Shown piece after piece: positions 5,182 through 43,575 of a stretch of 64,000 nt of DNA (position 1 is the stretch's first letter; every line of letters begins with the position of its first letter). The DNA is from Alphaproteobacteria bacterium (GTDB taxonomy: Bacteria > Pseudomonadota > Alphaproteobacteria > UBA828), in assembly GCA_965242855.1 (NCBI GenBank), contig OZ251509.1:2513648-2577647 (forward strand). The letters run 5' to 3'. Made by a program: the position numbers and the translations under genes. Below the pieces are notes generated by a model. The model was given only the letters and a program-made list of their open reading frames with translations. It did no database searches and was not told where the DNA came from.

Positions 5182-5228
5182 CGTCGGACCATCATTCCTT
5201 CTTCGGGTCGAACCGGGAGCGGCGCTCG

Positions 5229-6303
5229 TCATACCGGTGGCTCGAACGTCATCGTGATGTCGCTCCACTGTTCGTAGTCGTCGCCGTGCGGTGTCAGGAC
5301 TTCGAACGGGCTGGCCGTCAGCACCGCGCGCCGGGCGCTCTCGGCCATGATGCGGAAACTGCCGCCGGCGGCGCGGCCGTCCTCCACGATCTCGGTGCTG
5401 AGAACGGTGCCGTCCCGGGCGAGCTGGATGCGCAGCGTCACCACCATCCGGGCGGCGTCGCGCACGCCCGCGGGCACGCTCCAACTCGCCTCGACCTTCC
5501 GCTTGATGGCGCCGGCCAGGGTCTGCCACAATTGTAGGTCGTCACCGGGCGTCGCCTGTTTCGGGACGGCGTCGGCCTCTCCTTCCCCTGGCAAGGCGAC
5601 CTCTTCGAGGAGTTCTTCGAAAGACGAGTCCTCGTCCAGCGGCGGCGCGGCGGGCGCCTCGGCGTCTTCCTCGGCGATGCTCTTGAGCAGCGTGTCGAAC
5701 GGCGCGGGCGGCTTGGCGGACGGCGGGAGCGGCGGCGGCGCGACGGGCGGAGGCTCCGCTTCCGGTTCCGCAGCCGGCGCGGGCGCCGGTTCCGGTGCGG
5801 GCGCGGGAACGGGCGGCTGCGGTTCGGGCTCCGACGGGAGCGCCGCCATCTGGGGCGGCGGCTCGGGAAGAGATGTCGGTTCCGGTTCGGGCGCGGGTTC
5901 CGGTGTCGCGACCGGCGCCGGTTCGGGGACGGGCGCAGGCTCGGGGGCCGACGCCGCAACCGATTCGGGAGCAGGTTCGGGCTCGGGGGCTGGCTCCGTG
6001 ACAGGCTCGGGCACCGGCGCAGGCTCGGGGACGGGCTCCGCGACCAGCTCGGGAACAGGCGTGGGTTCAGGGGCCGGCTCCACGATCGGTTCGGGCATCG
6101 GCGCGGGTTCCTCGGCCGGCGGCGGTTCCGGCGTCGCGCGCGACTCCGGTTCGAGCTCCGGCGGCGACGCTTCATCGACGATCGCGACCACGCTGACGAC
6201 GATCGGCTCGTCGAGCGCGTCGCTCTCGAAGAGACTCGGCAGGCCAAGCACGACGGCGAGCACGACGCCGACATGCAGGAGGACGGAAAAGAACCAGCCG
6301 CCC

Positions 6304-7488: not shown

Positions 7489-7971
7489 CTAATGCCGGTC
7501 CGCTCGTTCCAGTCGCGACAACGCGCCGCGCACCGACGCCGGCAGCCGAACCGCCCGACCCCGGCGATCGACGCAGCCGAGCTTCAGGCCGATCGCGACC
7601 AGCAGAGCGCCGCCACGCACCACGTGCTGATCGGCGTCGATGTGCGCGCCCGCCACCTTGCCGATGGTGGTGCGCACCTGGATCGCGTCGTCCAACACCG
7701 CCGGCGCGCGATAGTCGGCGACGCAGCGCCTGACGACGAAGGCCACGCCGCTCTCGTCGCGAAGCGCGCCGTGCGCGACGTTCGCCGCGCGCATCATCTC
7801 GGTCCGCGCGCGCTCGGCGAATTTGAGGTAGTTGGCGTAATAGACGATGCCGCCGGCATCGGTGTCCTCGTGATAGACGCGGAGCGGATAGACGTGCTGG
7901 GCGCCCTCGAACCAGCCGGCACTCCCGGCGCCCCGCGCGGCCGCCGCGCCCGCTTCAATCGCCCGCGTCAT
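7489..7971 (-). CDS. ybgC: Tol-Pal-associated acyl-CoA thioesterase YbgC (4HBT fold)
   Basis: Hot-dog thioesterase motif ([16 protein letters not shown]). The gene sits first in the tol operon. Confidence 0.8.
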
Positions 7972-9001
7972 GGGCTTCCCCGAGCAGCGCGAGCTGGCCT
8001 GCCGCCGGCGGCGCCGACAGCCCCAGATGGCCGAAGCCGTGCAGGGTCAGCTGCCGGCCGCGCGGCGTACGCTGCACGAAACCGAGCTGGATCAGGAACG
8101 GCTCGACCACCTCCTCCAGCGCGTCGCGCTGTTCCGAAAGCGCCGCGGCGATCGTCTCGATCCCCACCGGGCCGCCGTCGTAGTTTTCCGCGATGCAGGC
8201 GAGATAGCGCCGGTCCATCGAATCGAGGCCCCGCCCATCGACCTCGAGTCGGTCGAGTGTCCGGTCGGCAAGGGCGGAATCGATCCTTTCGGTTCCGGCG
8301 ACCGCCGCGAAGTCGCGCACGCGCCGCAGGAGTCGGCCGGCGATGCGCGGCGTGCCGCGCGACCGCGCGGCGATTTCCGCCGCCCCGTCCGCGCTCAGCG
8401 ACACGCCGAGAAGGCGCGCGTTGCGCGTCACGATCTCGACCAGATCCTCCACGTCGTAGAAATCGAGCCTGAACGGGATGCCGAACCGCTCGCGGAGCGG
8501 CGTCGTGACCAGGCCCGTCCGCGTCGTCGCACCCACGAGGGTGAACGGCGGCAGGTCGATCCGCACCGAGCGCGCGCCCGGCCCTTCGCCGATGATCAGG
8601 TCGAGCTGCGCATCCTCCATGGCGGGATAGAGGATCTCCTCCACCGCCGGGTTGAGCCGGTGGATCTCGTCGACGAACAAGACGTCCCGATCGCCCAGGT
8701 TGGTCAGGATCGCCGCCAAGTCGCCGGCGCGGGCGACGACCGGCCCGGAGGTGACCCGCAGGCCGACGCCGAGCTCGCGGGCGATGATCTGCGCCAGCGT
8801 AGTCTTGCCGAGGCCAGGCGGCCCGTGGAACAGGACATGGTCGAGGGCTTCCCCGCGCTCCACGGCGGCGGCGATGAAGACCCGCAGGTTCTCGCGAACC
8901 GGCCGCTGCCCGATGAAATCGTCCAGCTTCTGCGGTCGCAGGCCGACATCGAACCGGTCGTCGGGCTCGGCGGCGCCGGCCACGATCCGGGATTCGCTCA
9001 T
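7955..9001 (-). CDS. ruvB: Holliday junction branch migration helicase RuvB
   Basis: Walker [12 protein letters not shown], Walker [11 protein letters not shown], and a RuvB C-terminal winged helix. The ATG at 9001 gives MSESRIV. The 231-aa upstream extension in the track is an artefact. Confidence 0.9.
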
Positions 9002-9600
9002 TGCGCGAGCTCCTTGAGCCCGGCCCTGATCAGCGCCTCGACCGGCGTGGCGCCGTCGAGCTTGCGGGCGGCTTCGGCAACCGCGCCCTGGGCCTCGCTC
9101 GGGCGGTAGCCGAGATTGACCAGCGCGGCGACCGCGTCCGCGCCGGACGCGCCGGCAGGCGAGGCGCCGGCGGCCGACGCACCCGGCGCAGCCGGCTGCG
9201 CCGGCACCTTGTCCCTGAGCTCGGCGAGGATGCGGGCCGCGAGCTTGGGCCCGACCCCAGGCGCGCGCGCCATGCCCGCCCTGTCCTGCGCGGCGATGCA
9301 ATGGGCCAATTCCTGAGCGGGGAGAGCACCCAGAATCGCGAGGGCTAGGCGCGCGCCGACGCTCTGCACCGTCTGCAACAGCCGGAACCACGCGCGCTCC
9401 TGCTCGCTCGAGAAGCCGTAGAGGTGGATGTGGTCCGCGCGGACCACGGTCTCGACGGTCAGGCTCACCGTCTGTCCGGGCGCCGGCAGTTCGGCTAAGG
9501 TGCCGCTGGAGCAATAGGCGAGATAACCCACCCCGCCCACGTCCACCACGGCCCAGCCGTCGCCGATGCTGTCGAGGACCCCGCGCAGCTTCGCGATCAT
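8998..9600 (-). CDS. ruvA: Holliday junction DNA-binding protein RuvA
   Basis: MIAKLRGVL start, helix-hairpin-helix motifs, and an ATGA overlap with ruvB. Confidence 0.9.
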
Positions 9601-23968: not shown

Positions 23969-24056
23969 GGTGCCCGCGCCCGGATTCGAACCGGGACGAC
24001 TTCGAGAAGTCGGCGGATTTTAAGTCCGCTGCGTCTGCCACTTCCGCCACGCGGGC
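23969..24056 (-). tRNA. tRNA-Leu (anticodon TAA)
   Basis: The reverse complement folds as follows. The acceptor stem pairs GCCCGCG with CGCGGGC. The anticodon arm pairs GCGGA with TCCGC around a loop of CTTAAAA. The long variable arm pairs CGACTTC with GAAGTCG. The T-arm carries GGTTCGAATCC. No CCA is encoded. Confidence 0.85.
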
Positions 24057-26679: not shown

Positions 26680-27369
26680 ATGACGGAGAAGCCCCACTAC
26701 CACGGCCATCGCGAGCGCCTGCGGCGGCGCTTCGCCAAATCGGGCGCCGACGCGCTGGAGGACCACGAGCTGCTCGAACTGCTGCTGTTCGGCGCGCGCC
26801 CGCGCGGCGACATGAAGCCTCTGGCGAAGAAGCTGCTCGCGCGCTTCGGCGGCGTCGGCGCGGTGCTGGGCGCCGACCGGACGGCCCTGAAGGAGGTGGA
26901 CGGCGCCGGCGAGGCGGTGGTCCACACGCTCAAGCTCGCCGAGGCGCTCGCGGTGAAGACCCTCGAGGACAAGGTGATGGAACGCCCGGTCATCGCTTCG
27001 TGGCAGGCGCTTCTGGATTACTGCCGGCTGCGCCTGGCGCACCGCCCGACGGAGCATTTCCGCGTGCTCTACCTGAACAACCGCAACGCCCTGATCGCCG
27101 ACGAGGAACAGCAGCGCGGCACCATCGACCGCGTGCAGCTCTACCCGCGCGAGGTCATCAAGCGGGCGCTCGAACTCGGCGCCGCCGCCGTGATCCTGGT
27201 GCACAACCACCCGTCGGGGGACCCGCAGCCCTCCCGCGCCGACGTCGACATGACGCGGGAGGTCGCCGCCGCCGGCGCCAAGCTCGGCGTCGCCGTCCAC
27301 GACCATCTGGTGATCGGCCGCGCGGGCCACGTCTCGTTCCGCAGCAAGGGCCTGCTGCCCGGCGGCTGA
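26680..27369 (+). CDS. radC: RadC-family JAB-domain protein (UPF0758)
   Basis: HhH N-terminal region and the JAMM motif HNHPSGDPQPS. Confidence 0.8.
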   Translation: MTEKPHYHGHRERLRRRFAKSGADALEDHELLELLLFGARPRGDMKPLAKKLLARFGGVGAVLGADRTALKEVDGAGEAVVHTLKLAEALAVKTLEDKVMERPVIASWQALLDYCRLRLAHRPTEHFRVLYLNNRNALIADEEQQRGTIDRVQLYPREVIKRALELGAAAVILVHNHPSGDPQPSRADVDMTREVAAAGAKLGVAVHDHLVIGRAGHVSFRSKGLLPGG

Positions 27370-28384: not shown

Positions 28385-28600
28385 CATGGATTCCCGCTTT
28401 CGCGGGAATGACGGGGGAGGAGGTAGGAGCGACGGGGAAGGAGGCGGGAAGGACGGGGAAGGAGGCGCCGCGTCTCCTCGCGTCGATGGCCTTCCTCGGA
28501 CCGCCATTCCCCGCTTTCGCGGCGGCAGGCTCCGCGGGCGCGGGCCGTCGTCATTCCCGCCCTCTACATCCGTCATTCCCGCGCAAGCGGGAATCCAGGC
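28385..28600. repeat. Cluster of REP/MITE-like palindromic units and purine-rich direct repeats
   Basis: A first 20-nt palindrome ATTCCCGC-TTTC-GCGGGAAT lies at about 28389-28409. A second palindrome ATTCCCGCGCAAGCGGGAAT lies at about 28580-28599. GTCATTCCCGC occurs twice. The direct repeat GACGGGGAAGGAGGCG occurs twice. Confidence 0.55.
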
Positions 28601-28690
28601 GGCGCCCCGGTTTGCAACCGTCCTGGTTTGCAACATGGCGCTTCGGGCGTGGCGGGGGTATGGAACGGGCTCCCTCCCGCCGGAGCGCGC

Positions 28691-31600
28691 ATGGAGAACC
28701 TTTCCCGCGGCGGCCTGTTCGCCGACGACTTCCTGTGCGGCACCATCGCCGAATCGGCGGATTGGCAGGCGCTCGACGACGCGGCGCTCGACTCCCTCGA
28801 ACGCGACCTCGGCGCGCTCCTCGCGTGCTTCCCCATCGAGGGCGCGCCCAACGAGAGCCAGACCGAGGACGACCTGATCTGGCCCGTGCTCGCCTGCCTC
28901 GGCTGGACGCAGAGCCTGCGGCAGCAGAACCTGAGCGCCCGCGGCCGCGCCGACGTGCCGGACGGCCTGCTGTTCGCCGACGAAGAGGCGAAGGCCCGCG
29001 CCAACGCCCTGCCCGAGGAGTGGAAGCGCTACGGGCTGGGCGCGGCGCTGGTCGAATCCAAGCGCTGGCGGCGCCCGCTCGACCGCCGCTCGGACAGGCG
29101 CGGCGAGGAGACCGCGCCCTCGACCCAGATGCTCCGCTACCTGCGGCGGGTGGAGGACCTGACGGAAGGCAGCCTGCGCTGGGGCATCCTCACCAACGGC
29201 GCCTGCTGGCGGCTCTACTGGCAAGGCGCGCGCTCCGTCTCCGAGCAGTTCTTCGAGCTCGATCTGGCGGCGCTCTTCGATCTGCCGGGCGCGCCGGGCG
29301 CGGTCGGCGACCTGCTCGCCCCCGCGCCGGAGGACCGCCGCCACTGGCTCAAGGTCTTCGCGCTGGTGTTCCGGCGCGCGGCCTTCCTGCCCGGCGCAGA
29401 AAGGCCGGCGAGCTTCCACCTTTACGCCATCGACGAAGGCCGCTTCCACGAGGAGCGCGTCGCCGGCGATCTCTCCGCCAAGGTGTTCGAGCGGGTCTTC
29501 CCGCAGCTCGCCCGCGCCATCGCCGCCGCCGCGCCGGACGCGCCGCTGGCGGAGGTGCGCGAGGCCGCGCTGATCCTGCTCTACCGCCTGCTCTTCATCC
29601 TCTACGCCGAGGACCGCGACCTGCTGCCCGTCCGCGACAGGCGCTACGACGATTACGCCCTGCGCGAGAAGGTGCGCGGCGACGTCGGGCGGCGCATGGA
29701 CGAGGGCGACGTCTTCTCCGAGAGCGCCGCCCGCTACTGGTCGGCGGTCGACGATCTCTGCCGGGCCATCGACGCCGGCGACCCCTCCATCGGCCTGCCG
29801 CCCTACAACGGCGGCCTGTTCGACCGGGCCCGCACGCCGCTGCTCGGCCGCGTCCGGCTGGGCGATGCGGTCATGGCCGACGTCATCGACGCGCTCTCCT
29901 TCGAACGGACGGCGGACGGGCGCCGCAAGTACATCAACTACCGCGATCTCGGCGTCCGCCAGCTGGGCTCCGTTTACGAACGCCTGCTGGAGCGCGCGCT
30001 GGCGGCGGAGGGCGAAGGCGTCGTCGTCCGCCCCGACGTCTTCGCGCGCAAGGAGTCCGGCAGCTACTACACGCCGGACGATCTGGTCGGCCTGATCCTC
30101 GAGGAGACGCTGGGGCCGCTCGCCGCCGCGCCCATGGAGGCGTTCCGCGCCCGCGCCGAGACGCTGGCGAAGGATCGGCGCGACGCCGCGCCTCGCATCG
30201 CCGAATTGCGCAAGATCGATCCGGCCGAACGCCTGCTGGCGCTCAAGGTCTGCGACCCGGCCATGGGCTCCGGGCATTTCCTGGTCAACCTGGTGGACCG
30301 GCTCGCCGACCGGACCATCGCCGCCATGGCCGAAGCGGAGGCGGCGGTCGACTGGGGCGCATACCGTTCGCCGCTCGCCGACCGCATCGAGGCCATCCGC
30401 GACACCATCCGCGCCAACGCCGAGGCGCACGGCTGGAGCGTCGCGCCCGAACGCCTCGACGACCGCCACGTCGTGCGGCGCATGGTGCTCAAGCGCTGCG
30501 TCTTCGGCGTGGACAAGAACCCGATGGCGGTGGAGCTCGCCAAGGTCTCGCTCTGGCTGCACACCTTCACCGTCGGCGCGCCGCTCTCCTTCCTGGATCA
30601 TCATCTGCGCTGCGGCGACAGCCTGTTCGGCGCCTGGGTGCGCGCCGGCGTCGACAAGGCGGTCGAATACGGCACGCCGCTGCTGCTGCACGATTCGATC
30701 GCCCGCGCCGACGGCGCGGCGCGGGGCATGGCGGAGATCGAGGCGCTGACGGACGCGGAGATCGCCGAGGCGCACCGCTCCGCCAAAACCTTCGCCGAGG
30801 TCGAAGCGAAGACCGGGCCGCTCGACCGGATTCTCGCCCTGGTCCACGCCTTCGACTGGCTCGGCCTGCGCGCGCCCGAAGACCGGACGGCGCTCCAATC
30901 CTTCTTCGCGGGCCGCTTCGGCGACCCCGTCGCCATCGCCGCCGGAACGGCGGACCCGCTGCCGGAACGCGCCGAGGGCAGGCGCTTCGCCGAATTGCTG
31001 GACCGGGCGCGGGCGCTGGCCGCGGAGGAGCGCTTCCTGAACTGGCAGGTGGCCTTCCCCGGCGTCTGGTCGCGATGGGAGGGCGCCGAACCGCAAGGCG
31101 GCTTCGACGCCGTGATCGGCAACCCGCCCTGGGACAGGGTGAAGCTGCAACAGGTCGAGTGGTTCGCGGCCCGCCGCCCGGAGATCGCCCGCGCGCGGAG
31201 CGCCGCCGACCGCCGGCGCATGGTCGCCGCGCTGGAGAGGGGCCCGCGGGCCGAGGACCCGCGGGCCGAGGCCCCGCTCGCCCGCGATTTCGCGCGGGCC
31301 GGCGCGCGGGCGGCGGACAGGGCCCGCATGGCGCGGGCCTGCGGCGACTATCCGCTGCTCTCCGGCGGCGACGTGAACCTCTACAGCCTGTTCGTCGAGC
31401 GCGCCCTGGCGCTGGCGAAGCCGGAGGGCGTGGTCGGCCTGCTGGTGCCCTCCGGCATCGCCTCGGACAAGACCGCCGCCCGCTTCTTCAGAGGCGTGGC
31501 GACGGGAGGCCGGCTGCGGGCGCTCTACGATTTCGAGAACCGGCGCGCACGCCACAAGGCGCCGCCGTTCTTCCCGGATGTGCACAACAGCTTCAAGTTC

Positions 31601-32815
31601 TGCGCCTTCGTCGCCGGGCGGGCGCCGGCGCCCGCGCCTGCGCGCTGCGCCTTCTTCCTGCAAGCCGTGACCGAAATCGAGGAGCCTGAGCGGCGCTTCC
31701 CGCTGGCGGCGGCGGATTTCGCCCGCGTCAACCCCAACACCGGCACCGCGCCCGTCTTCCGCAGCCGCCGCGACGCCGAACTGACCGTGGCCATCTACGG
31801 CCGCTTGCCGGTGCTGGTCGACCGCTCGGCAGGCAAGGAGGCGAAGGCGTGGCCGGTGCGCTACACGACCATGTTCCACATGGCCAACGACTCCGGCCTC
31901 TTCCGCACCCGCGCGCAGCTGGAGGAGGAGGAAGGCGCGTGGCCGGTCGGCGGCAACCGCTTCGCCAGCCCCGCCGGGGAATGGGCGCCGCTCTACGAAG
32001 GCAAGATGGTGCAAGCCTTCGACCACCGCGCCGCCGGCATCGTCGTGAAGGAACGGAACCTGTTTCGCCCCGGCCAACAGGAAGCCGCCGAAGCCTCCCG
32101 GAAACGAAACCCCGCCTATTTCCCGACCCCCCGCTACTGGGTCATCGACGATCCCAAGCGATGGAATTGGAGCGACCGGTGGGTTGTCGCCTTCAAGGAC
32201 ATCACCGCCGCCACCAACATGCGCACCATGATCGCGGCAATCGTGCCACGCGCCGGAGCCGGACACACCCTTCCCTTGCTACCGCTGGAAGACGGCGCGA
32301 CGGATCGGGCCTCTCTGGCTTGTTCGATCGTCGCGAACCTGAACGCCGTGGCGTTCGATTTCGTCGCCAGACAGAAGGTTCCGACGACACACTTCACCTG
32401 GTACGTTCTGGAGCAACTTCCCGTGGTCCCGCCCGCGCGCTACGAAGCCGTCCGCTTCGGGCCGAAGACGGCGGGCGCGATCGTCCGCGAATCGGTGCTG
32501 GAACTCACCTACACCGCCCACGACATGGCCCCCTTCGCCCGCGCCCTGGGCCACGTGGACGACTCCGGCGCCCCGCCGCCGCCCTTCCCCTGGGACGAAG
32601 ACCGCCGCCTGGCGCTGCGCGCCCGCCTCGACGCGCTCTTCTTCCACCTCTACGGCGTGACCGATCGCGACGACGTGCGCCACGTCTATTCCACCTTCCC
32701 CATCGTCGAACGCCAGGAGCGCGCGGCGCACGGCCGCTACCGCTCCCGCGACCTCTGCCTCGCCTGGCTCAACGCCCTCGCCGCCGGCGCCCCGGACGCG
32801 GCGATCGAGGGGTGA
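28691..32815 (+). CDS. Single-chain Type IIG/IIL restriction-modification enzyme (PD-ExK nuclease plus gamma-class N6-adenine methyltransferase plus target-recognition domain)
   Basis: N-terminal PD-(D/E)xK-like motif (ADVPDGLLFADEE...ALVESKRW). Methyltransferase motif X (GSYYTPDDLV), motif I (VCDPAMGSGHFLV) and motif IV (IGNPPWDR), followed by a roughly 550-aa C-terminal region. The first in-frame ATG is at 28691. The track's start at 28628 is a TTG. Confidence 0.75.
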   Translation: MENLSRGGLFADDFLCGTIAESADWQALDDAALDSLERDLGALLACFPIEGAPNESQTEDDLIWPVLACLGWTQSLRQQNLSARGRADVPDGLLFADEEAKARANALPEEWKRYGLGAALVESKRWRRPLDRRSDRRGEETAPSTQMLRYLRRVEDLTEGSLRWGILTNGACWRLYWQGARSVSEQFFELDLAALFDLPGAPGAVGDLLAPAPEDRRHWLKVFALVFRRAAFLPGAERPASFHLYAIDEGRFHEERVAGDLSAKVFERVFPQLARAIAAAAPDAPLAEVREAALILLYRLLFILYAEDRDLLPVRDRRYDDYALREKVRGDVGRRMDEGDVFSESAARYWSAVDDLCRAIDAGDPSIGLPPYNGGLFDRARTPLLGRVRLGDAVMADVIDALSFERTADGRRKYINYRDLGVRQLGSVYERLLERALAAEGEGVVVRPDVFARKESGSYYTPDDLVGLILEETLGPLAAAPMEAFRARAETLAKDRRDAAPRIAELRKIDPAERLLALKVCDPAMGSGHFLVNLVDRLADRTIAAMAEAEAAVDWGAYRSPLADRIEAIRDTIRANAEAHGWSVAPERLDDRHVVRRMVLKRCVFGVDKNPMAVELAKVSLWLHTFTVGAPLSFLDHHLRCGDSLFGAWVRAGVDKAVEYGTPLLLHDSIARADGAARGMAEIEALTDAEIAEAHRSAKTFAEVEAKTGPLDRILALVHAFDWLGLRAPEDRTALQSFFAGRFGDPVAIAAGTADPLPERAEGRRFAELLDRARALAAEERFLNWQVAFPGVWSRWEGAEPQGGFDAVIGNPPWDRVKLQQVEWFAARRPEIARARSAADRRRMVAALERGPRAEDPRAEAPLARDFARAGARAADRARMARACGDYPLLSGGDVNLYSLFVERALALAKPEGVVGLLVPSGIASDKTAARFFRGVATGGRLRALYDFENRRARHKAPPFFPDVHNSFKFCAFVAGRAPAPAPARCAFFLQAVTEIEEPERRFPLAAADFARVNPNTGTAPVFRSRRDAELTVAIYGRLPVLVDRSAGKEAKAWPVRYTTMFHMANDSGLFRTRAQLEEEEGAWPVGGNRFASPAGEWAPLYEGKMVQAFDHRAAGIVVKERNLFRPGQQEAAEASRKRNPAYFPTPRYWVIDDPKRWNWSDRWVVAFKDITAATNMRTMIAAIVPRAGAGHTLPLLPLEDGATDRASLACSIVANLNAVAFDFVARQKVPTTHFTWYVLEQLPVVPPARYEAVRFGPKTAGAIVRESVLELTYTAHDMAPFARALGHVDDSGAPPPPFPWDEDRRLALRARLDALFFHLYGVTDRDDVRHVYSTFPIVERQERAAHGRYRSRDLCLAWLNALAAGAPDAAIEG

Positions 32816-32940
32816 CGGGCCGCGCCGGCCGGGAAGCGAGATTTGACTTCCGATTCGCCGTGTGATGGACTGAGAACGTCCGCGCCGCGCGCCATCGGCC
32901 ACCGTCAGCGCGGACGCTTCCTTCCGGTGGAGGCCAGACG

Positions 32941-34047
32941 GTGAGCGCGCACGAGACGACAGGGGGCGGCGCCCCGTCGGAGGAAATCGAGGACCTGGAT
33001 CCCGAGAGCGGATCGTGGGGCGAGTATCCCATCGACGAGCTTCTGATCCGGCAGGAAAACCGGACGATCCACGGCGTCATGCGGCGGATCGACCGGGACG
33101 CCTACATCCTGGATCCCGATTTCCAGCGTGAATTTCTCTGGGACGACGCCAAACAGAGCAAGCTGATCGAATCCGTCATCATGCGTATTCCGCTGCCGGT
33201 GTTCTACATGGCGGAGGACGAAGAAGGGCGGATGGTGGTGGTGGACGGTTTGCAACGCCTGTCCACGTTTCGGCGGTTCGTGAAGGACGAATTGCCGTTG
33301 CGTCTTCCGGATCGACACGAACTGAATCAGAAACGATTCTCGGATTTACCGCCCAAGCTCAAGAACCGCGTCGAGGATTGCAACCTCACGTTCTACATCA
33401 TCGACTCGAAGGCACCGGAGCGCGCCCGCCTGGATATCTTCGAACGGGTGAACGGCGGTGTGCCGCTCACGAGGCAGCAGATGCGCAATTGCCTGTTCAT
33501 GGGCGCGGCAACCAAGTTTCTCAAGGAGGAATCGCAAACCGAAATTTTCATACTGTCGACCGGTAGAAGCCTGGACAGTAAGACCATGCGCGACCGGGAG
33601 TTCGTCAACCGCTTTTGCGCCTTTCGACTTCTTGATCTCGACGACTATAGCGGCTACATGGATGATTTTCTCGCCAAATGCCTGCGTTGTATGAACGAAA
33701 TGGACGAAACCGGACTCTCTCGGCTGTCCGGGCAATTCCGCCGAAGCCTCGCCAGCAATCACAGGCTATTTGGACGACACGCCTTCAGGAGATCCAGGGA
33801 GCCTGACCGGCGCAGCTTTCTCAACGCCTCGTTCTGGGACGTGATGTCCACCGGCCTGTGCCGGTACACCCAGGACCGGGTCGAAGCGCGCGCCGACGAT
33901 CTTCGCGATGCCGTCCACCGGCTTCTCGACGACGAGGAGTTCAACACCGCAATCACCTACAGCCCCAACGACTCCAGGAAGGTGAAGCATCGCTTTCAGA
34001 TGGCCCGAAACATGTTCGAGGAGATCTTGGGTGCTCACACGGATTGA
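32941..34047 (+). CDS. DUF262 (GmrS/ParB-like NTPase-nuclease fold) domain protein
   Basis: DUF262 hallmarks LDPDFQREFLWD and VVDGLQRLSTF (a DGQQR-type motif). GC content is clearly lower than the flanks. Confidence 0.75.
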   Translation: MSAHETTGGGAPSEEIEDLDPESGSWGEYPIDELLIRQENRTIHGVMRRIDRDAYILDPDFQREFLWDDAKQSKLIESVIMRIPLPVFYMAEDEEGRMVVVDGLQRLSTFRRFVKDELPLRLPDRHELNQKRFSDLPPKLKNRVEDCNLTFYIIDSKAPERARLDIFERVNGGVPLTRQQMRNCLFMGAATKFLKEESQTEIFILSTGRSLDSKTMRDREFVNRFCAFRLLDLDDYSGYMDDFLAKCLRCMNEMDETGLSRLSGQFRRSLASNHRLFGRHAFRRSREPDRRSFLNASFWDVMSTGLCRYTQDRVEARADDLRDAVHRLLDDEEFNTAITYSPNDSRKVKHRFQMARNMFEEILGAHTD

Positions 34048-35173
34048 TCTTCGACATTTCAAGTGTTTCGGCGAATTGAAGCTGCCCCTTCGACCGCTCA
34101 CGCTTCTTTCCGGCACCAATGCTTCGGGGAAATCGACGGTTTTGCAGGGGCTGGCGCTTATTCACCAGACGATGCGGGAACATGAATGGTCGCCGCGGCT
34201 GATGCTGAACGGCACGGCCGTCCGCCTCGGCACCGTCGCCGACGTGATCGATCAAGTCCAGGGGCGCCGCGAATGCGAAATCGGCCTGCTGGATGGCGAT
34301 ACGGTCTTTCGATGGACGTTTACGGGTGAACGCGAAGACATGTCGATGGACGTCGCCCGCCTCGTCGCCGCCGACACCGAGCATGACCGTCCGACCGGTC
34401 TTCGCCACTTGTTGCCACCTCCGCACGAGGATGGCCGGTTGGCGCAACGGCTTCGGACGCTGACCTACCTGACGGCGGAACGGCTGGGTCCGCGCGAAAC
34501 TTATCCTTTGGAAGATCCGCAAGGCGCGCCGGTCGTCGGCTCGCGAGGAGAGCATACCGTCAGCGTTCTCCATGCCGGCCGCGACGCCGACGTGCCGGAC
34601 CGCCTGCGGCTTCCGGACATGCCCGGCACCCGGTTGCGACAGGTCGAGGCGCGGATGGCCCGGTTCTTCCCCGGTTGTGGACTGGAGGTCAGGGAAGTCG
34701 TCGGCGCCAATGCGGCGATGTTGGGGCTTCGCACGTCCAGCGATATGGATTTCCACCGCCCGGCTCACACCGGCTTCGGCCTCACCCAGGTGCTTCCCAT
34801 CGTCGTCGCGGCCTTGTCCGCGGACCAGGACGGCCTGCTGCTGATCGAGAACCCGGAAGTGCATCTCCACCCCGCCGGACAGGCGGCGATGGGGAAGTTC
34901 CTGGCCGAAGTCGCGGCGGCCGGCGTTCAGGTTCTTCTTGAGACGCACAGCGACCACGTCCTGAACGGCATTCGCCGGGCGGTCAAAGACGAGACGCTGT
35001 CCGCCGGCGCCGCCGCGGTGCATTTCTTCCGGCCGTATCGCGACGACGGCCGGGGCGGCGTGGCCCAAGCGCAGAGCCTGGCCCTGGACGAGGCCGGCAA
35101 CGTCGACTCCTGGCCCGACGGATTCTTCGACCAGTTCGACAAGGACATGAACTACTTCGCCGGCTGGAGTTGA
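34031..35173 (+). CDS. ABC-type AAA ATPase (AAA_21-like) with a DUF3696-like C-terminus
   Basis: Walker A LLSGTNASGKST, Walker B/D-loop LLLIENPEVHLHP, and a C-terminal WPDGFFDQFDKD motif. The start overlaps the DUF262 gene by 17 nt. Confidence 0.75.
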   Translation: MLTRIDLRHFKCFGELKLPLRPLTLLSGTNASGKSTVLQGLALIHQTMREHEWSPRLMLNGTAVRLGTVADVIDQVQGRRECEIGLLDGDTVFRWTFTGEREDMSMDVARLVAADTEHDRPTGLRHLLPPPHEDGRLAQRLRTLTYLTAERLGPRETYPLEDPQGAPVVGSRGEHTVSVLHAGRDADVPDRLRLPDMPGTRLRQVEARMARFFPGCGLEVREVVGANAAMLGLRTSSDMDFHRPAHTGFGLTQVLPIVVAALSADQDGLLLIENPEVHLHPAGQAAMGKFLAEVAAAGVQVLLETHSDHVLNGIRRAVKDETLSAGAAAVHFFRPYRDDGRGGVAQAQSLALDEAGNVDSWPDGFFDQFDKDMNYFAGWS

Positions 35174-35174
35174 C

Positions 35175-36134
35175 GTGGAGCTTTTCGTCAACGACAAGTC
35201 GATCCACGGGCAATTCCACGACCTGCAATCGTTTCGCGGCGCTTTCGGCAGGCTGATGGTGCTGCACGCGGCCGCCCGGCGCCACGAGCGTGATATTCAT
35301 TGCCCCCGCGCGCTGTTGGCCGTCGAACCGTTGCCGGGCGTTTCGATGCAGCAGACGATCGGGCATCTGTCGGAAAGCGAACGCCGTTCCGCGATGCGCT
35401 GGCTGACGCAAGGCGGTCCGTTCTGGGACGATCTGCGCCGGCATGGGCCCGACGACTGGCTGGAGTGTCGAGGCGACGTCGTCACCGACTCCGCCGTCGG
35501 CGAAGCCGCGTACCGGAAACTTCACGGCGTCGAATGCGGTCTCGTCAGTGTCGTCCCTTCCGACTGGGACTTCTCGCCCGTGGAGGTGGCGTGGCAGCGG
35601 GAGGCCGAGGGACTGGCTGATCGACGGACGGACCTCGAAAACTGGCGCGACCCCGCCGCCTTGGAAAACGGGCTGCGCGCCGCGGCGCCGCCGGTCCAAT
35701 CGTGGGGAGATTTGCGGAACGTCTCGGTGCGCCGTTTCACGCGCCTGACCTTCGCCGACGACGCCTTCCAACCCCTCGACGGGACTCCGTTCTCCGCGAG
35801 CGCGTCGGAGCGCATCGTGGTGCTGCTGGACATCCTGGACCGTCTTGCGCGGGCGTTCGATCCATCCGGCAAGCGGACGCCAGAAGGAAACCGCCTCCAT
35901 CAGGACCACTTCAGGGGCCGCAACGCACTGTTTTCCGATTCGTCCCCCACGGAGAGGCACGATTTCCGCAACGAATTGACGTTCCCCGATCCCGGTGGTT
36001 CCGGTAGTTCCTTGTTCTGCCCGTGGCACGGCAAGGTACGAAGATCGGTCTTGCGCCTGCACTTCTCGTGGTCGTTTCGCTCCGGAGAGCCGGTCTGCAT
36101 CGTCTACGTTGGGCCGAAGATCACTCGCCGCTGA
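35175..36134 (+). CDS. Hypothetical protein, third gene of the DUF262-ATPase cassette
   Basis: The ATG lies 2 nt after the ATPase stop. No recognisable motif was found. The ORF is 319 aa. Confidence 0.5.
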   Translation: MELFVNDKSIHGQFHDLQSFRGAFGRLMVLHAAARRHERDIHCPRALLAVEPLPGVSMQQTIGHLSESERRSAMRWLTQGGPFWDDLRRHGPDDWLECRGDVVTDSAVGEAAYRKLHGVECGLVSVVPSDWDFSPVEVAWQREAEGLADRRTDLENWRDPAALENGLRAAAPPVQSWGDLRNVSVRRFTRLTFADDAFQPLDGTPFSASASERIVVLLDILDRLARAFDPSGKRTPEGNRLHQDHFRGRNALFSDSSPTERHDFRNELTFPDPGGSGSSLFCPWHGKVRRSVLRLHFSWSFRSGEPVCIVYVGPKITRR

Positions 36135-36213
36135 GGTCGAAGCGGCCCTCACCACGCCTTGCCGGGCGGGGGCGGGGCGCACACAATCGGGCGCAGGGAA
36201 ACCGGCTCCGCCC

Positions 36214-37212
36214 ATGCTGACCTTCCTCGTCCGGCGCCTGCTGATCATGATCCCGACGCTGCTCGCGATCAGCATCCTCGTCTTCATCATCATCCAGCTG
36301 CCGCCCGGCGACTATCTCAGCGTCCACATCGCCGAGCTCGAGGCCCAGGGCGAAGGCGCGAACGCCGAGAAGATCGAGTTCCTGCGCCGGCAGTACGGCC
36401 TCGACCGCCCCCTGGTCGAGCAATACGGCATCTGGCTGTTCGGCCTGCTCCAGGGGGACATGGGCTATTCCTTCGAATACAACCTGCCGGTGAACGAGGT
36501 GGTCGAGGACCGCCTGCTGCTCACCTTCATCGTCTCCTTCGTGACGATCCTCTTCACCTGGGCGGTGTCCTTCCCCATCGGCGTCTATTCGGCGACCCAT
36601 CAGTACAGCTGGGGCGACCACGGGCTCACCTTCCTCGGCTTCCTGGGCCTGGCGACGCCGAACTTCCTGCTCGCCCTCGTCCTCCTCTACGTCGCCAACG
36701 TCGCCTTCGGCACCTCCATCGGCGGCCTGATGGACCCGGAATATCTGGGCCAGCCCTGGAGCGGCGGCAAGCTGCTCTCGGTGCTCGAACATCTGTGGGT
36801 GCCGGTGGTGGTGATCGGCACCTCCGGCACCGCCGGCATGATTCGCCGGCTGCGCGCCAACCTGCTGGACGAGTTGCAGAAGCAATACGTCGTCACGGCG
36901 CGGGCGAAGGGGCTGCCGCCCGGACGGCTGCTGTTCAAATACCCGCTGCGCATGGCGCTCAACCCGTTCATCGGCGACATCGGCAACCTGCTGCCGCAGG
37001 TGATCTCCGGCGCGGCGATCGTCTCCGTCGTGCTGTCCCTGCCGACTACCGGGCCGATGCTGCTGGACGCGCTGCGCACGCAAGACATGTATCTCGCGGG
37101 CTCGTTCCTGATGTTCCTGGCCTTCCTGACGGTGATCGGCGTCTTCGTCTCCGACATCGCGCTGGCCGCCCTCGACCCGCGCATCCGGCTGAGCGGCGGC
37201 GTGACCCGATGA
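36214..37212 (+). CDS. ABC transporter permease (DppB/OppB/YejB family)
   Basis: Six transmembrane segments and the binding-protein-dependent transport EAA-like loop. The ATG at 36214 gives MLTFLVRR. Confidence 0.85.
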   Translation: MLTFLVRRLLIMIPTLLAISILVFIIIQLPPGDYLSVHIAELEAQGEGANAEKIEFLRRQYGLDRPLVEQYGIWLFGLLQGDMGYSFEYNLPVNEVVEDRLLLTFIVSFVTILFTWAVSFPIGVYSATHQYSWGDHGLTFLGFLGLATPNFLLALVLLYVANVAFGTSIGGLMDPEYLGQPWSGGKLLSVLEHLWVPVVVIGTSGTAGMIRRLRANLLDELQKQYVVTARAKGLPPGRLLFKYPLRMALNPFIGDIGNLLPQVISGAAIVSVVLSLPTTGPMLLDALRTQDMYLAGSFLMFLAFLTVIGVFVSDIALAALDPRIRLSGGVTR

Positions 37213-38375
37213 CGGAGCGGGAGGGGGGGCGGCTCCGGCACTACGTCTCGCGGGAGCCGTTCGACCCCGGCGCGGCGGAAGCCCTGACGCCGGAGCAGGA
37301 GCGATTCTACATGGCGTCCCAGTGGCGCATGATGTGGTGGAAGCTCAAGCGCCACCGCGTCGCCGTCGCCGCCGGGATCTTCCTGCTCGCCCTCTACGCC
37401 TCCATCCTGGTCAGCGAGTTCCTGGCGCCCTACGGCCTCCATTCCCGCCACACGGATTCGATCTACGCCCCGCCGCAGGCCGTCCAGCTCTTCCACGACG
37501 GCGAATTGCGCGCGCCCTTCGTTTACGGCTTCAAGTACAAGCTCGACATGGACACGCTGAAACGGGTGTACGTCCGGGACGAAAGCCGCATCCACACCAT
37601 CCGCTGGTTCTGCTTGGGGGACGCCTACGAATTCTGGGGCCTCGTGGAGATGCGCTTCCACATCGTCTGCCCGGCGGAGGACGGGACGCTCTTCCTGCTG
37701 GGGACGGACAGGCTCGGCCGCGACATCCTCTCGCGCATCATCTACGGCGCGCGCATCTCGCTCACGGTGGGGCTGTTCGGCATCGCCATCAGCTTCCTTC
37801 TCGGCCTCGTGTTGGGCGGCCTCTCCGGCTATTACGGCGGCTGGGTGGACGCGATCGTGCAGCGCGTCATCGAGGTGATCCGCTCCTTCCCCGAACTGCC
37901 GCTGTGGATGGCGCTGTCGGCGGCCCTGCCCGTCACCTGGTCGCCGATCGTGGTCTATTTCGGGATCACCATCATCCTCGGGCTGATCGACTGGACCGGC
38001 CTCGCCCGCGCCGTGCGCTCGAAGCTGCTGGCGCTGCGCGAGGAGGATTTCGCGACCGCCGCGATGCTCATGGGCGCCCGCCCCGGGCGCATCGTCGCGC
38101 GCCATCTGGTGCCGAGCTTCATGAGCCACCTCATCGCCTCGGCTACGCTTTCCATCCCCTCGATGATCCTGGGAGAGACGGCGCTTTCCTTCCTCGGGCT
38201 CGGCCTGCGCCCACCGATCACCAGCTGGGGGGTGCTGCTGAACGAGGCGCAGAACATCAACGCCGTCGCGCTCTACCCGTGGCTCATGCTGCCCGTGGTT
38301 CCGGTGATCCTGGTGGTCCTCGCCTTCAACTTCCTGGGCGACGGGTTGCGCGACGCGGCGGACCCGTACAAATGA
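37209..38375 (+). CDS. ABC transporter permease (DppC/OppC/YejE family)
   Basis: Transmembrane topology and conserved loop (LGTDRLGRDILSR). The start shows an ATGA overlap with the upstream permease. Confidence 0.85.
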   Translation: MTEREGGRLRHYVSREPFDPGAAEALTPEQERFYMASQWRMMWWKLKRHRVAVAAGIFLLALYASILVSEFLAPYGLHSRHTDSIYAPPQAVQLFHDGELRAPFVYGFKYKLDMDTLKRVYVRDESRIHTIRWFCLGDAYEFWGLVEMRFHIVCPAEDGTLFLLGTDRLGRDILSRIIYGARISLTVGLFGIAISFLLGLVLGGLSGYYGGWVDAIVQRVIEVIRSFPELPLWMALSAALPVTWSPIVVYFGITIILGLIDWTGLARAVRSKLLALREEDFATAAMLMGARPGRIVARHLVPSFMSHLIASATLSIPSMILGETALSFLGLGLRPPITSWGVLLNEAQNINAVALYPWLMLPVVPVILVVLAFNFLGDGLRDAADPYK

Positions 38376-39877: not shown

Positions 39878-41104
39878 ATGAAACCGGCTACCGGCCGTTG
39901 GGTGAGCGGCGACGACTTCTGCGGCCGCGAAACCGAATTGGGCATTTTGGAAACGCGGGCCCGTGAGGGCAACCATACGCTGCTCACCGGGCAGCGGCGC
40001 ATGGGGAAGACCAGTATCGCCCGCGAGCTCGGGCGGAGGCTGGAGGGTGCCGGCTGGACCGCGCTCTTCGCCGACGTCGAGGATGCGGCGTGCGCGGAAG
40101 ACGCGATCGCCGAGATCGCCCGGGCCGCGTACCCGGTTCGCTCCATCGTGGCGCGCGTCGCCGCCAGCGTAGCGCGCGTCCGGGACATCCGCGGGAAGGT
40201 CGAGGTCGGAGCACTCGACTTTCGCGTGAAGTTCCGCGCCCGCCTGGACGCCGGAAACTGGCGGCGCCACGGGGACAGCCTGATCCGCGCCTGCGCCAAG
40301 CACGAACAACCGGTTCTCCTCGTCGTCGACGAACTGCCGATCCTCCTCACGCGCATGCTTCGCGAAGAAGACGGCGCGCGGCATGTCGACGACTTCCTGA
40401 GCTGGCTGCGGCGCGCGCTCCAGGGGCTGGAAGGCGGCTCTCCGGTCGTCATCCTCTCCGGCAGCATCGGCCTCATGCCCCTGGTGGCCCGGCTCGGCAT
40501 TCCCGACCGAGTCAACTACCTTGATTCCTTCCGCCTGGGACCCTGGAGCCACGACGAGAGCATCGCCTGTTTCGAGCGGCTCGCCGCGCGTTGCGGCTTG
40601 CAGGTCGAGGACGGCGTTGCCGGCGCCGTTTACGACACCCTCGGCATCGGCATTCCCCACCACGTGCAGTCCTTCTTTGCGCGTTTGCGGGAAGCCGCCG
40701 CGATGCGGGGGCGCGACCGGATGACGAAGGCGGACGTTGGCGAGGTCTACCGCACGGGGCTCCTCGGACCATCGGGGCAGAGTGATCTCCTGCATTACGA
40801 GACCCGCCTCGCGGATGCGCTGGACGACGAAAGCCGCAGGATCGCGATGGAGATCCTCGCCGAGGCCGCGGTCCAGGGTGTGTTCGGCGCCGATGCGCGG
40901 CGCGCCATCGAACGGTCTTACACGCCGTTGTTCCCGGATGCGCCCGCCCGCGTCGTTGCGGCGCTCGACGTGCTGGGGCACGACGGCTATCTCGAACCCG
41001 GCGCCGACGGTTATCGCTTCCCGTCGCGCCTGCTGAAGGACTGGTGGGCGACACGCTTTCGCGATCACCATATGCCGCTCGCGGAGCGGGGCGCCCGGCC
41101 ATGA
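39878..41104 (+). CDS. Arch_ATPase/ORC-like P-loop NTPase (ATP-binding protein)
   Basis: N-terminal FCGRETEL followed by Walker A LLTGQRRMGKTS, and Walker B LLVVDELP. Confidence 0.7.
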   Translation: MKPATGRWVSGDDFCGRETELGILETRAREGNHTLLTGQRRMGKTSIARELGRRLEGAGWTALFADVEDAACAEDAIAEIARAAYPVRSIVARVAASVARVRDIRGKVEVGALDFRVKFRARLDAGNWRRHGDSLIRACAKHEQPVLLVVDELPILLTRMLREEDGARHVDDFLSWLRRALQGLEGGSPVVILSGSIGLMPLVARLGIPDRVNYLDSFRLGPWSHDESIACFERLAARCGLQVEDGVAGAVYDTLGIGIPHHVQSFFARLREAAAMRGRDRMTKADVGEVYRTGLLGPSGQSDLLHYETRLADALDDESRRIAMEILAEAAVQGVFGADARRAIERSYTPLFPDAPARVVAALDVLGHDGYLEPGADGYRFPSRLLKDWWATRFRDHHMPLAERGARP

Positions 41105-43575
41105 CCGCCCCGAACGCCCGGACGCTCCGCAAGTTCAATCCCGGGCTGTTCCAGTCCGACCGCGAGGTGATCGAACAATTTGTCGTCCGGCACCGCGAGC
41201 TCGAGAGGGTGCTCGAGATCCTCCGGGGAAACGTCGACTCGCCGTCCTGCCAGCACGTCCTGGTCGTCGCGCCGCGCGGCCGGGGCAAGACCATGCTGCT
41301 GGCGCGCGTCGCCGCCGAGCTCCGGACCGACGAAGCGCTCTCCCGGCGCCTGTTGCCGGTGCGGTTCATGGAGGAAAGTCATGAGATCCTCGGTCTCGCC
41401 GACTTCTGGCTCGAAGCGCTGTTTCACTTGGCGCGGGAGACCGATGTCCCGGCTCTCTCGCGGGAGTTGCGTGACACCCATGCCGACCTGAAATCCCGCT
41501 GGCGCGAGCGCGAACTGCCCGACCGCGCCCGCGCCGCCGTCGTCGAAGCGGCGGAACTCCTCGACAGGCGGCTGGTCCTCATGGTCGAGAACCTTCAGGC
41601 ACTCTGCGACTCCGTGGACGACGATTTCGGCTGGGGGCTTCGCCAAGCGTTGCAGTCGGAGCCCCGGATCGTGCTGCTGGCCACCGCCACCAGCCGCTTC
41701 GCGGCGCTGGACGATGCGCGCCAGCCCTTCTTCGAACTGTTCTGGCAAGTCTCTCTGGAGCCGCTGGACAGGGAGGCATGCCGGCGCCTGTGGCGCGCGG
41801 TCGCCGGGGACGGCAGGAGCGATGGCGAAATCAGGGCCTTGCAAATCCTCACCGGCGGCAGCCCCCGCCTGCTGGTCATCGTCGCGGAATTCGCGCGGCA
41901 TCGCTCCCTGCGCCGCCTGATGGACGAACTGGTGACCCTGATCGACGACCACACGGAGTATTTTCGCGGCCACCTGGAGAGCCTGGCCAGGACCGAGCGC
42001 CGGGTCTATCTGGCGGCAGTCGATCTCTGGCGGCCGTCGAGCACCGGCGAGATTGCGGCGCGTTCCGCGATGGACGTGCGCCCCGTCTCGACCATGCTCG
42101 GCAGGCTCGTCGACCGCGGCGCGATCGCCGTAGAAGGAACCGGCCGCAAGCGGCGCTACGCCGCCGCCGAGCGCCTCTATTGCATCTACTACAAGCTGCG
42201 GCGCGAACGCGACGAAGCGGCCGTCGTGCAAAACCTGATCCGCTTCATGGCGGTCTTCTACGGCCGCGACGAACTGGCGGACCTGTCCGGCCTGCTCCGC
42301 GCCGAAGCGATGCAGTCGGCAATCATTCGCGAGGGGATCGAACGCGCGATCGCCGAAGCGCCGGAAATCGGAAGCATCTTCCCCGGCGAGACATGGCCGA
42401 ACATCGCCCGGCCGGCCGGCTTGGCCGAAACAAGCGAGATCGACCTCGCGGCACTCGTGAAGAAGGCGGCCTCGCACGTGGAGCGCGGCGAATCCGAGGC
42501 AGCGGTCACAACATGCGACCAAGTGATCGAACGCTTCGGCGACGACGACACGCCGGAAATCCGAGCGCAGGTCGCCTGGGCGTTGACCTGCAAGGGTATT
42601 ACGCAAGGCAAGCTTGGCGAGACTGAGGCAGCGATCGCAACATGCGACCAAGCGATTGAACGCTTCGGTGACGACGACACGCCAGAAGTACGGCCGGCGG
42701 TTGTCATAGCGCTGGTCCTCAAGGGTATTACGCAAGGCAAGCTTGGCGAGGCTGAAGCGGAGATCAAAACATACGATCAAGCGATCGAACGCTTTGGCGA
42801 TGACGACACGCCAGAAGTACGGCCGGCGGTTGTCGTAGCACTGGTCCTCAAGGGTATTACGCAAGGCAAGTTCGGCGAGGCTGAAGCGGAGATCAAAACA
42901 TACGATCGAGCGATCGAACGCTTCGGCAATGACGGCACGCCGGAAGTTCGGGCGCTGGTCGCCAGGGTGCTGGTCAACAAGGGCATTGCCCAAGGACAGC
43001 TTGGCGAGTCCAGGGCGGAGATCACGACATACGATCAAGCGATCGAACGCTTCAGCGACGACGGCACGCCGGAAGTTCGAGCGCTGGTCGCCTGGGCGCT
43101 GGTCCGCAAGGGCATCGCGCAAGGGCGGCTTGGCGAGTTCGAGGCGGCAATCGCGACCTACAACCAAGTGATCGAACGCTTCGGCGGTGACGGCACGCCG
43201 GAAGTCCGGGCGCCGGTCGCCGATGCGTTGGCCAACAAGTGTGCGGTGCAAATGAGAATCGGCCGCGCGGAAGATGCTCTGGATACCTTTCGCCTCGCGT
43301 ATGCCGCATTCGCTCCCGACGATCAGGCGATGCTGGGTGCCATGCAGGAAACCGTACCGGCGTTGATCGCCGGCGGCCTCCTCGAGCGCGGCCTCATCGA
43401 GATACTCGAGGAGGACCGCGAGAAAGCGGACGCTCTGGCGCCGCTCATCGTGGCCCTGCAACAGCGCGCCGGCGACAGCGTCCGCGCGCCGGCCGAGGTG
43501 CTCGAAGTCGCGGCCGACATCCTGGAACAAATCGAGGGGAAAAGCACGGTGCCGGCCGCTCTCCCGGATTCGTGA
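41101..43575 (+). CDS. STAND-like P-loop NTPase with a winged helix-turn-helix (wHTH) and 43-aa TPR-like tandem repeats
   Basis: Walker A VVAPRGRGKTML, Walker B LVLMVENLQ, a MarR-like wHTH (RRVYLAAVDLWRPSSTGEIAARS), then six 43-aa repeats of the form TxDQAIERFGDDDTPEVRxxVxxALVxKGITQGKLGExEAxIx. The start shows an ATGA overlap with the upstream ATPase. Confidence 0.7.
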   Translation: MTAPNARTLRKFNPGLFQSDREVIEQFVVRHRELERVLEILRGNVDSPSCQHVLVVAPRGRGKTMLLARVAAELRTDEALSRRLLPVRFMEESHEILGLADFWLEALFHLARETDVPALSRELRDTHADLKSRWRERELPDRARAAVVEAAELLDRRLVLMVENLQALCDSVDDDFGWGLRQALQSEPRIVLLATATSRFAALDDARQPFFELFWQVSLEPLDREACRRLWRAVAGDGRSDGEIRALQILTGGSPRLLVIVAEFARHRSLRRLMDELVTLIDDHTEYFRGHLESLARTERRVYLAAVDLWRPSSTGEIAARSAMDVRPVSTMLGRLVDRGAIAVEGTGRKRRYAAAERLYCIYYKLRRERDEAAVVQNLIRFMAVFYGRDELADLSGLLRAEAMQSAIIREGIERAIAEAPEIGSIFPGETWPNIARPAGLAETSEIDLAALVKKAASHVERGESEAAVTTCDQVIERFGDDDTPEIRAQVAWALTCKGITQGKLGETEAAIATCDQAIERFGDDDTPEVRPAVVIALVLKGITQGKLGEAEAEIKTYDQAIERFGDDDTPEVRPAVVVALVLKGITQGKFGEAEAEIKTYDRAIERFGNDGTPEVRALVARVLVNKGIAQGQLGESRAEITTYDQAIERFSDDGTPEVRALVAWALVRKGIAQGRLGEFEAAIATYNQVIERFGGDGTPEVRAPVADALANKCAVQMRIGRAEDALDTFRLAYAAFAPDDQAMLGAMQETVPALIAGGLLERGLIEILEEDREKADALAPLIVALQQRAGDSVRAPAEVLEVAADILEQIEGKSTVPAALPDS
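42508..43281 (+). repeat. Six in-frame tandem 129-bp repeats, near-identical at the DNA level
   Basis: Unit starts fall at about 42508, 42637, 42766, 42895, 43024 and 43153. Units 2 and 3 differ at only a few nucleotides. Confidence 0.75.

Follow-up and report, generated by a model that had tools for sequence, protein, structure and literature searches.

Three adjacent genes of an Alphaproteobacteria bacterium very probably constitute an intact anti-phage system, Type I Menshen (nsnA-nsnB-nsnC), which was probably acquired horizontally and lies beside a Type IIG restriction-modification (R-M) gene. They are located in a stretch of 64,000 nucleotides (nt) of contig OZ251509.1 (assembly GCA_965242855.1, positions 2,513,648 to 2,577,647 of the forward strand), which was analysed as a whole and is termed the window. 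An initial annotation had proposed a defence cassette at this site, and the proposal is borne out by matches of all three proteins to the PADLOC models for Nsn proteins. The same annotation had considered the cassette a new three-gene version with a novel partner. Judged by sequence, however, nsnABC is an already known system rather than a candidate new one, and its third gene encodes the known effector subunit NsnC. The genes, taken from the list of open reading frames (ORFs), are the following:

32941-34047, plus strand: nsnA, 368 amino acids (aa), GTG start
34031-35173, plus strand: nsnB, 380 aa, GTG start
35175-36134, plus strand: nsnC, 319 aa, GTG start

The proteins were compared with the models of PADLOC-DB and with the Pfam and NCBIfam collections. 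Each is matched over essentially its full length by a PADLOC Nsn model (NsnA, 7e-115; NsnB, 2.6e-100; NsnC, 1e-105), whereas the models of other systems are far weaker (PD-T4-2_A, 3e-35; PDC-M55A, HEC-03B and AriA, 1e-37 to 1e-23). The NCBIfam comparison assigned none of the proteins to a specific family and gave just generic ABC ATPase matches far under the cut-off. Menshen was discovered by Millman et al. 2022 (as summarised in PMC12065111) and was examined in detail by Li and colleagues (NAR 2025, PMC12065111), who describe NsnA as a DUF262 plus ParBDB protein, followed by NsnB, an ABC ATPase that ends in a DUF3696 tail, and “almost always” by NsnC. The latter is highly polymorphic, usually lacks a Pfam domain and combines an inactive-PIN-like (inPIN) N-terminal domain with a C-terminal nuclease domain, mostly of the BECR ribonuclease (RNase) fold; 35 inPIN and 15 effector families have been published. 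Since this definition includes NsnC, the third protein of the cassette is the known NsnC and not a novel component. Gene content and gene order in the window are those of Menshen, and nothing essential differs; the host is an uncultured, high-GC organism. An annotation of the locus as Menshen Type I (nsnABC) is due; PADLOC already recognises all three genes at the level of E <= 1e-100; beyond correct annotation, the finding is of little importance.

The tight packing of the three plus-strand ORFs, which the initial annotation had reported, was confirmed: nsnA and nsnB overlap by 17 nt (34031-34047), nsnB ends with a TGA stop at 35173, and one spacer base separates it from the nsnC start at 35175. 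Shine-Dalgarno-like GGAG/GAGG sequences are found 7-14 nt 5' of each of the three GTG starts. In a scan of one genome per species, 364 loci encode NsnC relatives, of which the best 80 were analysed along with three other loci (83 in total). The order nsnA-nsnB-nsnC is kept in all 81 loci with enough upstream sequence, the other two being truncated contigs; the survey of gene order that had been suggested thus revealed consistent co-occurrence. Moreover, the nsnA/nsnB overlap measures 17 nt in 72 of these 81 loci and the nsnB/nsnC spacer 1 nt in 57. Given this recurrent geometry, nsnABC is translationally coupled, as initially claimed, and the coupling is a conserved trait of the module. The recurrence of gene order and geometry in 81 loci, combined with more than 1000 homologues of the third protein, also indicates that the three ORFs did not arise by chance from a high GC content.

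NsnA is the predicted sensor subunit. Pfam assigns it to GmrSD_N/DUF262 (7e-22), in agreement with the initial domain call, and its aa 30-364 match positions 38-384 of the 385 positions of the PADLOC NsnA profile (382 bits). The QRxxxW, DGxQR and FxxxN motifs of Menshen NsnA are all present; two of them, FQREFLW and DGLQR, had been quoted before and indeed occur in the translation. Read from the latter, the motifs cover aa 61-67, 102-106 and 167-171, which correspond to these positions:

33121-33141, plus strand: NsnA motif I, FQREFLW
33244-33258, plus strand: NsnA motif II, DGLQR
33439-33453, plus strand: NsnA motif III, FERVN

Across 82 sequences, motifs I-III are at least 95% conserved. The ParB-like DUF262 domain appears to be followed by a helical C-terminal region of the ParBDB type; a sequence search found no relative of NsnA with a solved structure. 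Type II Menshen systems carry an extra globular sensor domain N-terminal to DUF262, while Type I, the majority form, has none or just a loop. The conserved core of the present NsnA is preceded by approximately 30 acidic, poorly conserved residues, and this leader places the system in Type I: as in other members of that type, DUF262 motifs I-III and the predicted C-terminal helical domain are present and the additional N-terminal sensor domain is absent.

NsnB is an ABC-type ATPase and the predicted signal transducer, which would hold NsnC. Its Pfam matches (AAA_15, 5e-21; AAA_21, 6e-18; DUF3696, 3e-11) agree with the AAA_21 and DUF3696 assignment made at the outset. The protein contains a Walker A motif, GTNASGKS, at aa 28-35 (G28-S35; nt 34112-34135), a GFG signature-like motif at aa 248-250, a variant Walker B motif, LLLIEN, at aa 269-274 (E273-N274), an ETHSDH motif, the His switch H306, DUF3696 at aa 327-373, and the C-terminal tail WPDGFFDQF that had been noticed earlier. 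These motifs are conserved among the 82 sequences. Two peculiarities published for NsnB, the replacement of the Walker-B DE by EN and that of SGG by GxG (PMC12065111), are both found here as LLLIEN and GFG; together with the DUF3696 tail they are shared with other Menshen systems. The PADLOC NsnB model is matched over its full length with 334 bits, compared with at most 125 bits for other systems, among which PDC-M55A, HEC-03B, AriA, PtuA and GajA give secondary matches. Among proteins of solved structure, an OLD-family ATPase and PtuA come closest to NsnB.

NsnC had been described as a protein with no recognisable domain. This holds insofar as Pfam contains no family for it and none of its more than 1000 homologues bears a Pfam annotation; yet its C-terminal domain resembles RNase toxins of the RelE/YafQ type. 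The protein matches the PADLOC model PDLC03896 (1e-105) at positions 1-319 of 319. This NsnC subfamily differs from that of PDLC03879, the number of which directly follows those of the NsnA and NsnB models and which matches with just 3e-14. An AlphaFold2 model built from 62 sequences is confident (predicted local distance difference test 89, predicted template modelling score 0.86) and comprises an alpha/beta domain (approximately aa 1-170), helices, and finally C-terminal helices with an antiparallel sheet. The N-terminal part, approximately aa 1-170, is alpha/beta and may be PIN-like or Rossmann-like, and the C-terminal part is listed as follows:

35772-36131, plus strand: putative RNase domain of NsnC, RelE/YafQ-like (BECR fold), approximately aa 200-319

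NsnC is a predicted effector with a C-terminal putative RNase domain of the RelE/YafQ type, and it comprises two domains, an N-terminal one that may be PIN-like, as in Menshen effectors, and a BECR/RelE-like C-terminal one. The best structural matches of the modelled C-terminal domain are the type II mRNA interferases RelE, YafQ, YoeB and HigB, with modest fold similarity; a Foldseek search of the NsnC model against the Protein Data Bank (PDB) gave nothing significant (E > 1), and an NsnC profile found no match among PDB sequences. H285, K287, R294, H296, K315 and T317 are invariant in the family and lie on predicted strands. Conserved basic and histidine residues thus occupy beta-sheet strands, and their positions may correspond to those of the active sites of RelE-type toxins. 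PB-BECR1, the commonest NsnC effector domain, features an H-R-H triad (PMC12065111), which H285, R294 and H296 of the present protein fit. An effector domain of the RelE/YafQ type suggests mRNA cleavage. The domain differs from the RelE-type toxins in that it has no detectable sequence similarity to them and no antitoxin, is fused to a putatively PIN-like domain and is predicted to be controlled by an ATPase.

The Menshen clade to which the cassette belongs is widely dispersed. Its hosts are almost all uncultured and represented by metagenome-assembled genomes (MAGs) from many phyla (loci L004-L083), including Latescibacterota, Binatia, Vicinamibacterales, Bryobacterales, Nitrospirales, Gemmatimonadota, Spirochaetia, Dehalococcoidia and Alpha- and Gammaproteobacteria. 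The identity between phyla amounts to approximately 50-65%, which indicates horizontal spread. The names of several host isolates resemble those of projects that we take to be sponge-microbiome binning efforts. The identity across phyla suggests frequent horizontal transfer of the clade within one habitat. The flanking genes differ among the loci, and a Type IIG gene adjoins the cassette just in the two closest relatives; consequently, the three genes form a self-contained mobile unit. The clade is a reasonable source of proteins for biochemical studies of the communication between a DUF262 sensor, an ABC ATPase and a RelE-like RNase: it shows strong conservation and wide transfer, more than 1000 NsnC homologues exist, and the NsnC model is confident.

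The GC content is 58.5% in nsnA and 65.4% in both nsnB and nsnC, compared with 70.5% in the window; the low value for the DUF262 gene had been noticed correctly. GC content at third codon positions (GC3) is 0.76-0.79 in the three genes and 0.92-0.94 in the flanking genes, including the Type IIG gene. The cassette is compositionally foreign, and the difference in GC3 from its neighbours indicates a recent acquisition.

The likely mechanism of NsnABC is that of the published model (PMC12065111), and every motif that it requires is intact and conserved at the present locus. NsnA, as a ParB-like DUF262 NTPase whose C-terminal domain would bind DNA, would recognise invading phage DNA. Recognition would stimulate the NsnB ABC ATPase, a predicted GajA-like tetramer, in which two DUF3696 tails would clamp the PIN-like N-terminal domain of NsnC. 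Upon binding or hydrolysis of ATP, NsnB would release or activate NsnC, and the BECR-type RNase domain would cut phage transcripts or, as an abortive infection response, host RNA, thus halting phage multiplication. As for function, the demonstration of anti-phage activity is limited to the Menshen system of Solibacillus silvestris, which provides protection from T2, T4, T6 and Fado (Millman 2022, as reported in PMC12065111); Menshen defence was lost when the DUF262 gene was mutated or deleted (PMC10952713).

Several points weigh against the assignment of the cassette to an intact, functional Menshen system. The presumed promoter region is the intergenic interval upstream of nsnA:

32816-32940, plus strand: intergenic region 5' of nsnA, 125 nt; GGAGG ribosome-binding site 8 nt 5' of the GTG start

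A scan for the sigma-70 consensus gave no promoter match for nsnABC, and a terminator scan yielded two terminator-like matches, no more than in shuffled controls. A literature search found no published biochemical mechanism for Menshen and no experiment on the present locus.

The cassette is found next to methylase-based defence genes in several settings. In approximately 17-24 of 79 loci, about a quarter, a DUF499 ATPase gene and a DUF7680 gene lie upstream and a DUF1156 DNA methylase gene downstream of the clade cassette. Examples are positions 5222-5698 and 8994-9260 of loci L002/L006, and in L002 DUF7680 ORFs occur on both sides of the cassette. At such loci the cassette, by its gene surroundings, is embedded in an Hma-like helicase-methylase-ATPase system, an arrangement of which Payne et al. 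2024 gave a general account. The locus closest to that of the window, L004 (Alphaproteobacteria MAG OZ241738.1), shows a further peculiarity: approximately 47 bp of the Type IIG 3' end, including the stop codon, are repeated 10 bp after the nsnC stop (4602-4648 and 7971-8017). The second copy is near-identical to the Type IIG end in the window (32773-32819) and is followed by an ORF of 210 aa (L004 8079-8711). A stretch of approximately 1055 bp with the repeat and the 210-aa ORF is absent from the window and from L001, where just the first approximately 9 repeat bases remain (window 36134-36201 for the region after nsnC). The repeat looks like the scar of a cassette insertion into the Type IIG end, followed by a deletion.

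The clade, which has its own NsnC subfamily, might be viewed as a horizontally exchanged plug-in cassette, which enters methylase-based defence systems or settles beside them (Type IIG here, Hma-like DUF499/DUF7680/DUF1156 systems in about a quarter of relatives). Insertion might proceed via short-homology recombination, of which the duplicate in L004 would be the trace, and NsnA might read the methylation state set by the neighbour and not a modification specific to phages. We regard this extended proposal as speculative and unlikely. If true, the clade would be a tractable subject for studies of how defence cassettes embedded in other systems spread and work together with R-M-like systems.

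A closer partnership would make Menshen an accessory of the adjacent Type IIG system, with NsnA sensing DNA that lacks the host methylation and all the genes acting as one functional unit. The cassette does share its strand with the Type IIG gene and lies directly 3' of it, 27.9% of Menshen operons in a published survey neighbour BREX, R-M or methylase genes, about a quarter of the clade is flanked by the DUF499/DUF7680 and DUF1156 genes, and the DUF262 domain has been suggested in print to target possibly unmodified DNA. However, Type IIG adjacency is limited to two of the 83 loci, both close relatives, and cassette flanks otherwise vary widely. The Type IIG gene also differs in GC3 (0.92 versus 0.76-0.79) and is separated from nsnA by the 125-nt gap with its own ribosome-binding site. 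This reading is therefore improbable, and a conserved unit of the Type IIG gene and Menshen was rejected.

The Type I Menshen assignment also has to be weighed against restriction of the Type IV kind, as exemplified by GmrSD and TgvAB, where a DUF262 protein recognises modified DNA, e.g., glucosyl-hydroxymethylcytosine (glucosyl-hmC), and the system cleaves DNA. T-even phages carry glucosyl-hmC in their DNA. It would fit that NsnA harbours GmrSD_N with the DGxQR motif and weakly matches the PADLOC models HEC-05, HEC-06 and SspE, and that the validated Menshen system protects against T-even phages. GmrSD, BrxU, SspE and TgvAB share with NsnA a ParB-like DUF262 NTPase sensor domain with DGxQR, but they combine DUF262 with a DUF1524 His-Me DNA nuclease, either fused or in a second DUF262-containing protein. 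The present cassette instead pairs an ABC ATPase with an RNase-like effector: none of the three proteins contains a DUF1524 or HNH domain (Pfam, E <= 0.1), the sole nuclease-like domain is the RNase-like one, and the NsnA model scores 382 bits versus at most 34 bits for GmrSD-like models. The comparison with TgvAB made in the initial annotation has to be abandoned, since TgvA and TgvB each belong to the DUF262 proteins, the latter also with a DUF1524 domain, and the pair includes no ABC ATPase; membership in TgvAB was rejected for this wrong architecture. Taken as a whole, the Type IV alternative is very improbable: family membership and DNA cleavage are excluded, while NsnA may still sense modifications.

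Among the other relatives of NsnA, PD-T4-2_A (Vassallo et al. 2022) is a DUF262 protein related over the full length (3.2e-35), yet it reaches 120 bits compared with 382 for the NsnA model, and the partner proteins in the window match NsnB and NsnC rather than PD-T4-2.

It is hardly credible that the cassette has no role in phage defence and represents either a selfish addiction module resembling toxin-antitoxin pairs or a cassette that has decayed and lost its function. The resemblance of the NsnC C-terminal domain to RelE-family toxins and the foreign composition would be compatible with such a view. On the other hand, none of the three ORFs is disrupted, conservation extends to all catalytic motifs, a small antitoxin-like gene is absent, and anti-phage activity of the Menshen family has been shown by experiment.

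PARIS (AriAB), Septu (PtuAB), Gabija (GajA) and HEC-03 resemble Menshen in that an ABC ATPase of the OLD/AAA_15 type is predicted to hold and regulate a separate toxic nuclease; they differ in the lack of a DUF262 sensor subunit and in their effectors, which are Toprim, HNH or PIN nucleases and not of the BECR fold. If nsnB and nsnC alone formed a system of ABC ATPase and effector similar to PARIS, Septu or HEC-03, the DUF262 gene would be an unrelated neighbour. This interpretation could appeal to the secondary PADLOC matches and nearest solved structures of NsnB, but it is extremely improbable, given that each of the 81 loci contains nsnA, with the same nsnB overlap in 72, that defence depends on the DUF262 gene, and that the NsnB model outscores other systems (334 bits versus at most 125, and at most 82 for AriA, PtuA and GajA).

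The gene upstream of the Menshen cassette lies outside the system:

28691-32815, plus strand: Type IIG restriction-modification gene, GC3 0.92, host-like codon composition

The encoded protein carries a methylase domain of the Eco57I type (Pfam, 3e-19) and matches the PADLOC models DrmMI (6e-77) and REase_MTase_IIG (1.5e-56), and the initial statement that the cassette lies directly 3' of a Type IIG gene stands. Its true start is probably the ATG at 28691 and not position 28628. Despite the top match to DrmMI, membership in DISARM was rejected, as no scanned neighbouring ORF matched a DISARM model. A segment of 77 bp of the window gene (32511-32587) is missing from L004 (at approximately 4415); since this length is not divisible by three, a frameshift may affect the 3' part of the L004 copy. 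Between an esterase gene and the Type IIG gene lies an element of approximately 210 bp (28387-28597) with 37-nt terminal inverted repeats, TGGATTCCCGC...GCGGGAATGACGG, which are 86% complementary, and with three 21-nt tandem repeats, GGAAxGACGGGGxAGGAGG. The palindromic core occurs just at these two sites in the window, and the element looks like a miniature inverted-repeat transposable element or a repetitive extragenic palindrome.

On the 3' side of the cassette, positions 36214-38375 encode two ABC-transporter permeases of the BPD_transp_1 and OppC_N types, near which neither the window nor L001 contains a substrate-binding or ATPase gene. Farther downstream, two adjacent plus-strand ORFs (39878-41104 and 41044-43575) carry STAND-like AAA_16 NTPase domains, the second along with HEAT and TPR repeats. 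PADLOC gave no match for either; the pair could represent regulators or an undescribed NLR-like pair, and a defence role of the ORFs in 39878-43575 was rejected. The same applies to an ABC transporter of 1202 aa, the PADLOC matches of which (mad3 and mad8) reflect generic ATPase similarity. The sole RNA gene found in the window by Rfam and tRNA scans is a tRNA-Leu(UAA) on the minus strand (23969-24056), the distance of which from the cassette argues against a tRNA-linked island boundary. Finally, a gene for a RadC-like JAB-domain protein (26680-27369, plus strand) precedes the Type IIG gene by approximately 1.3 kb.

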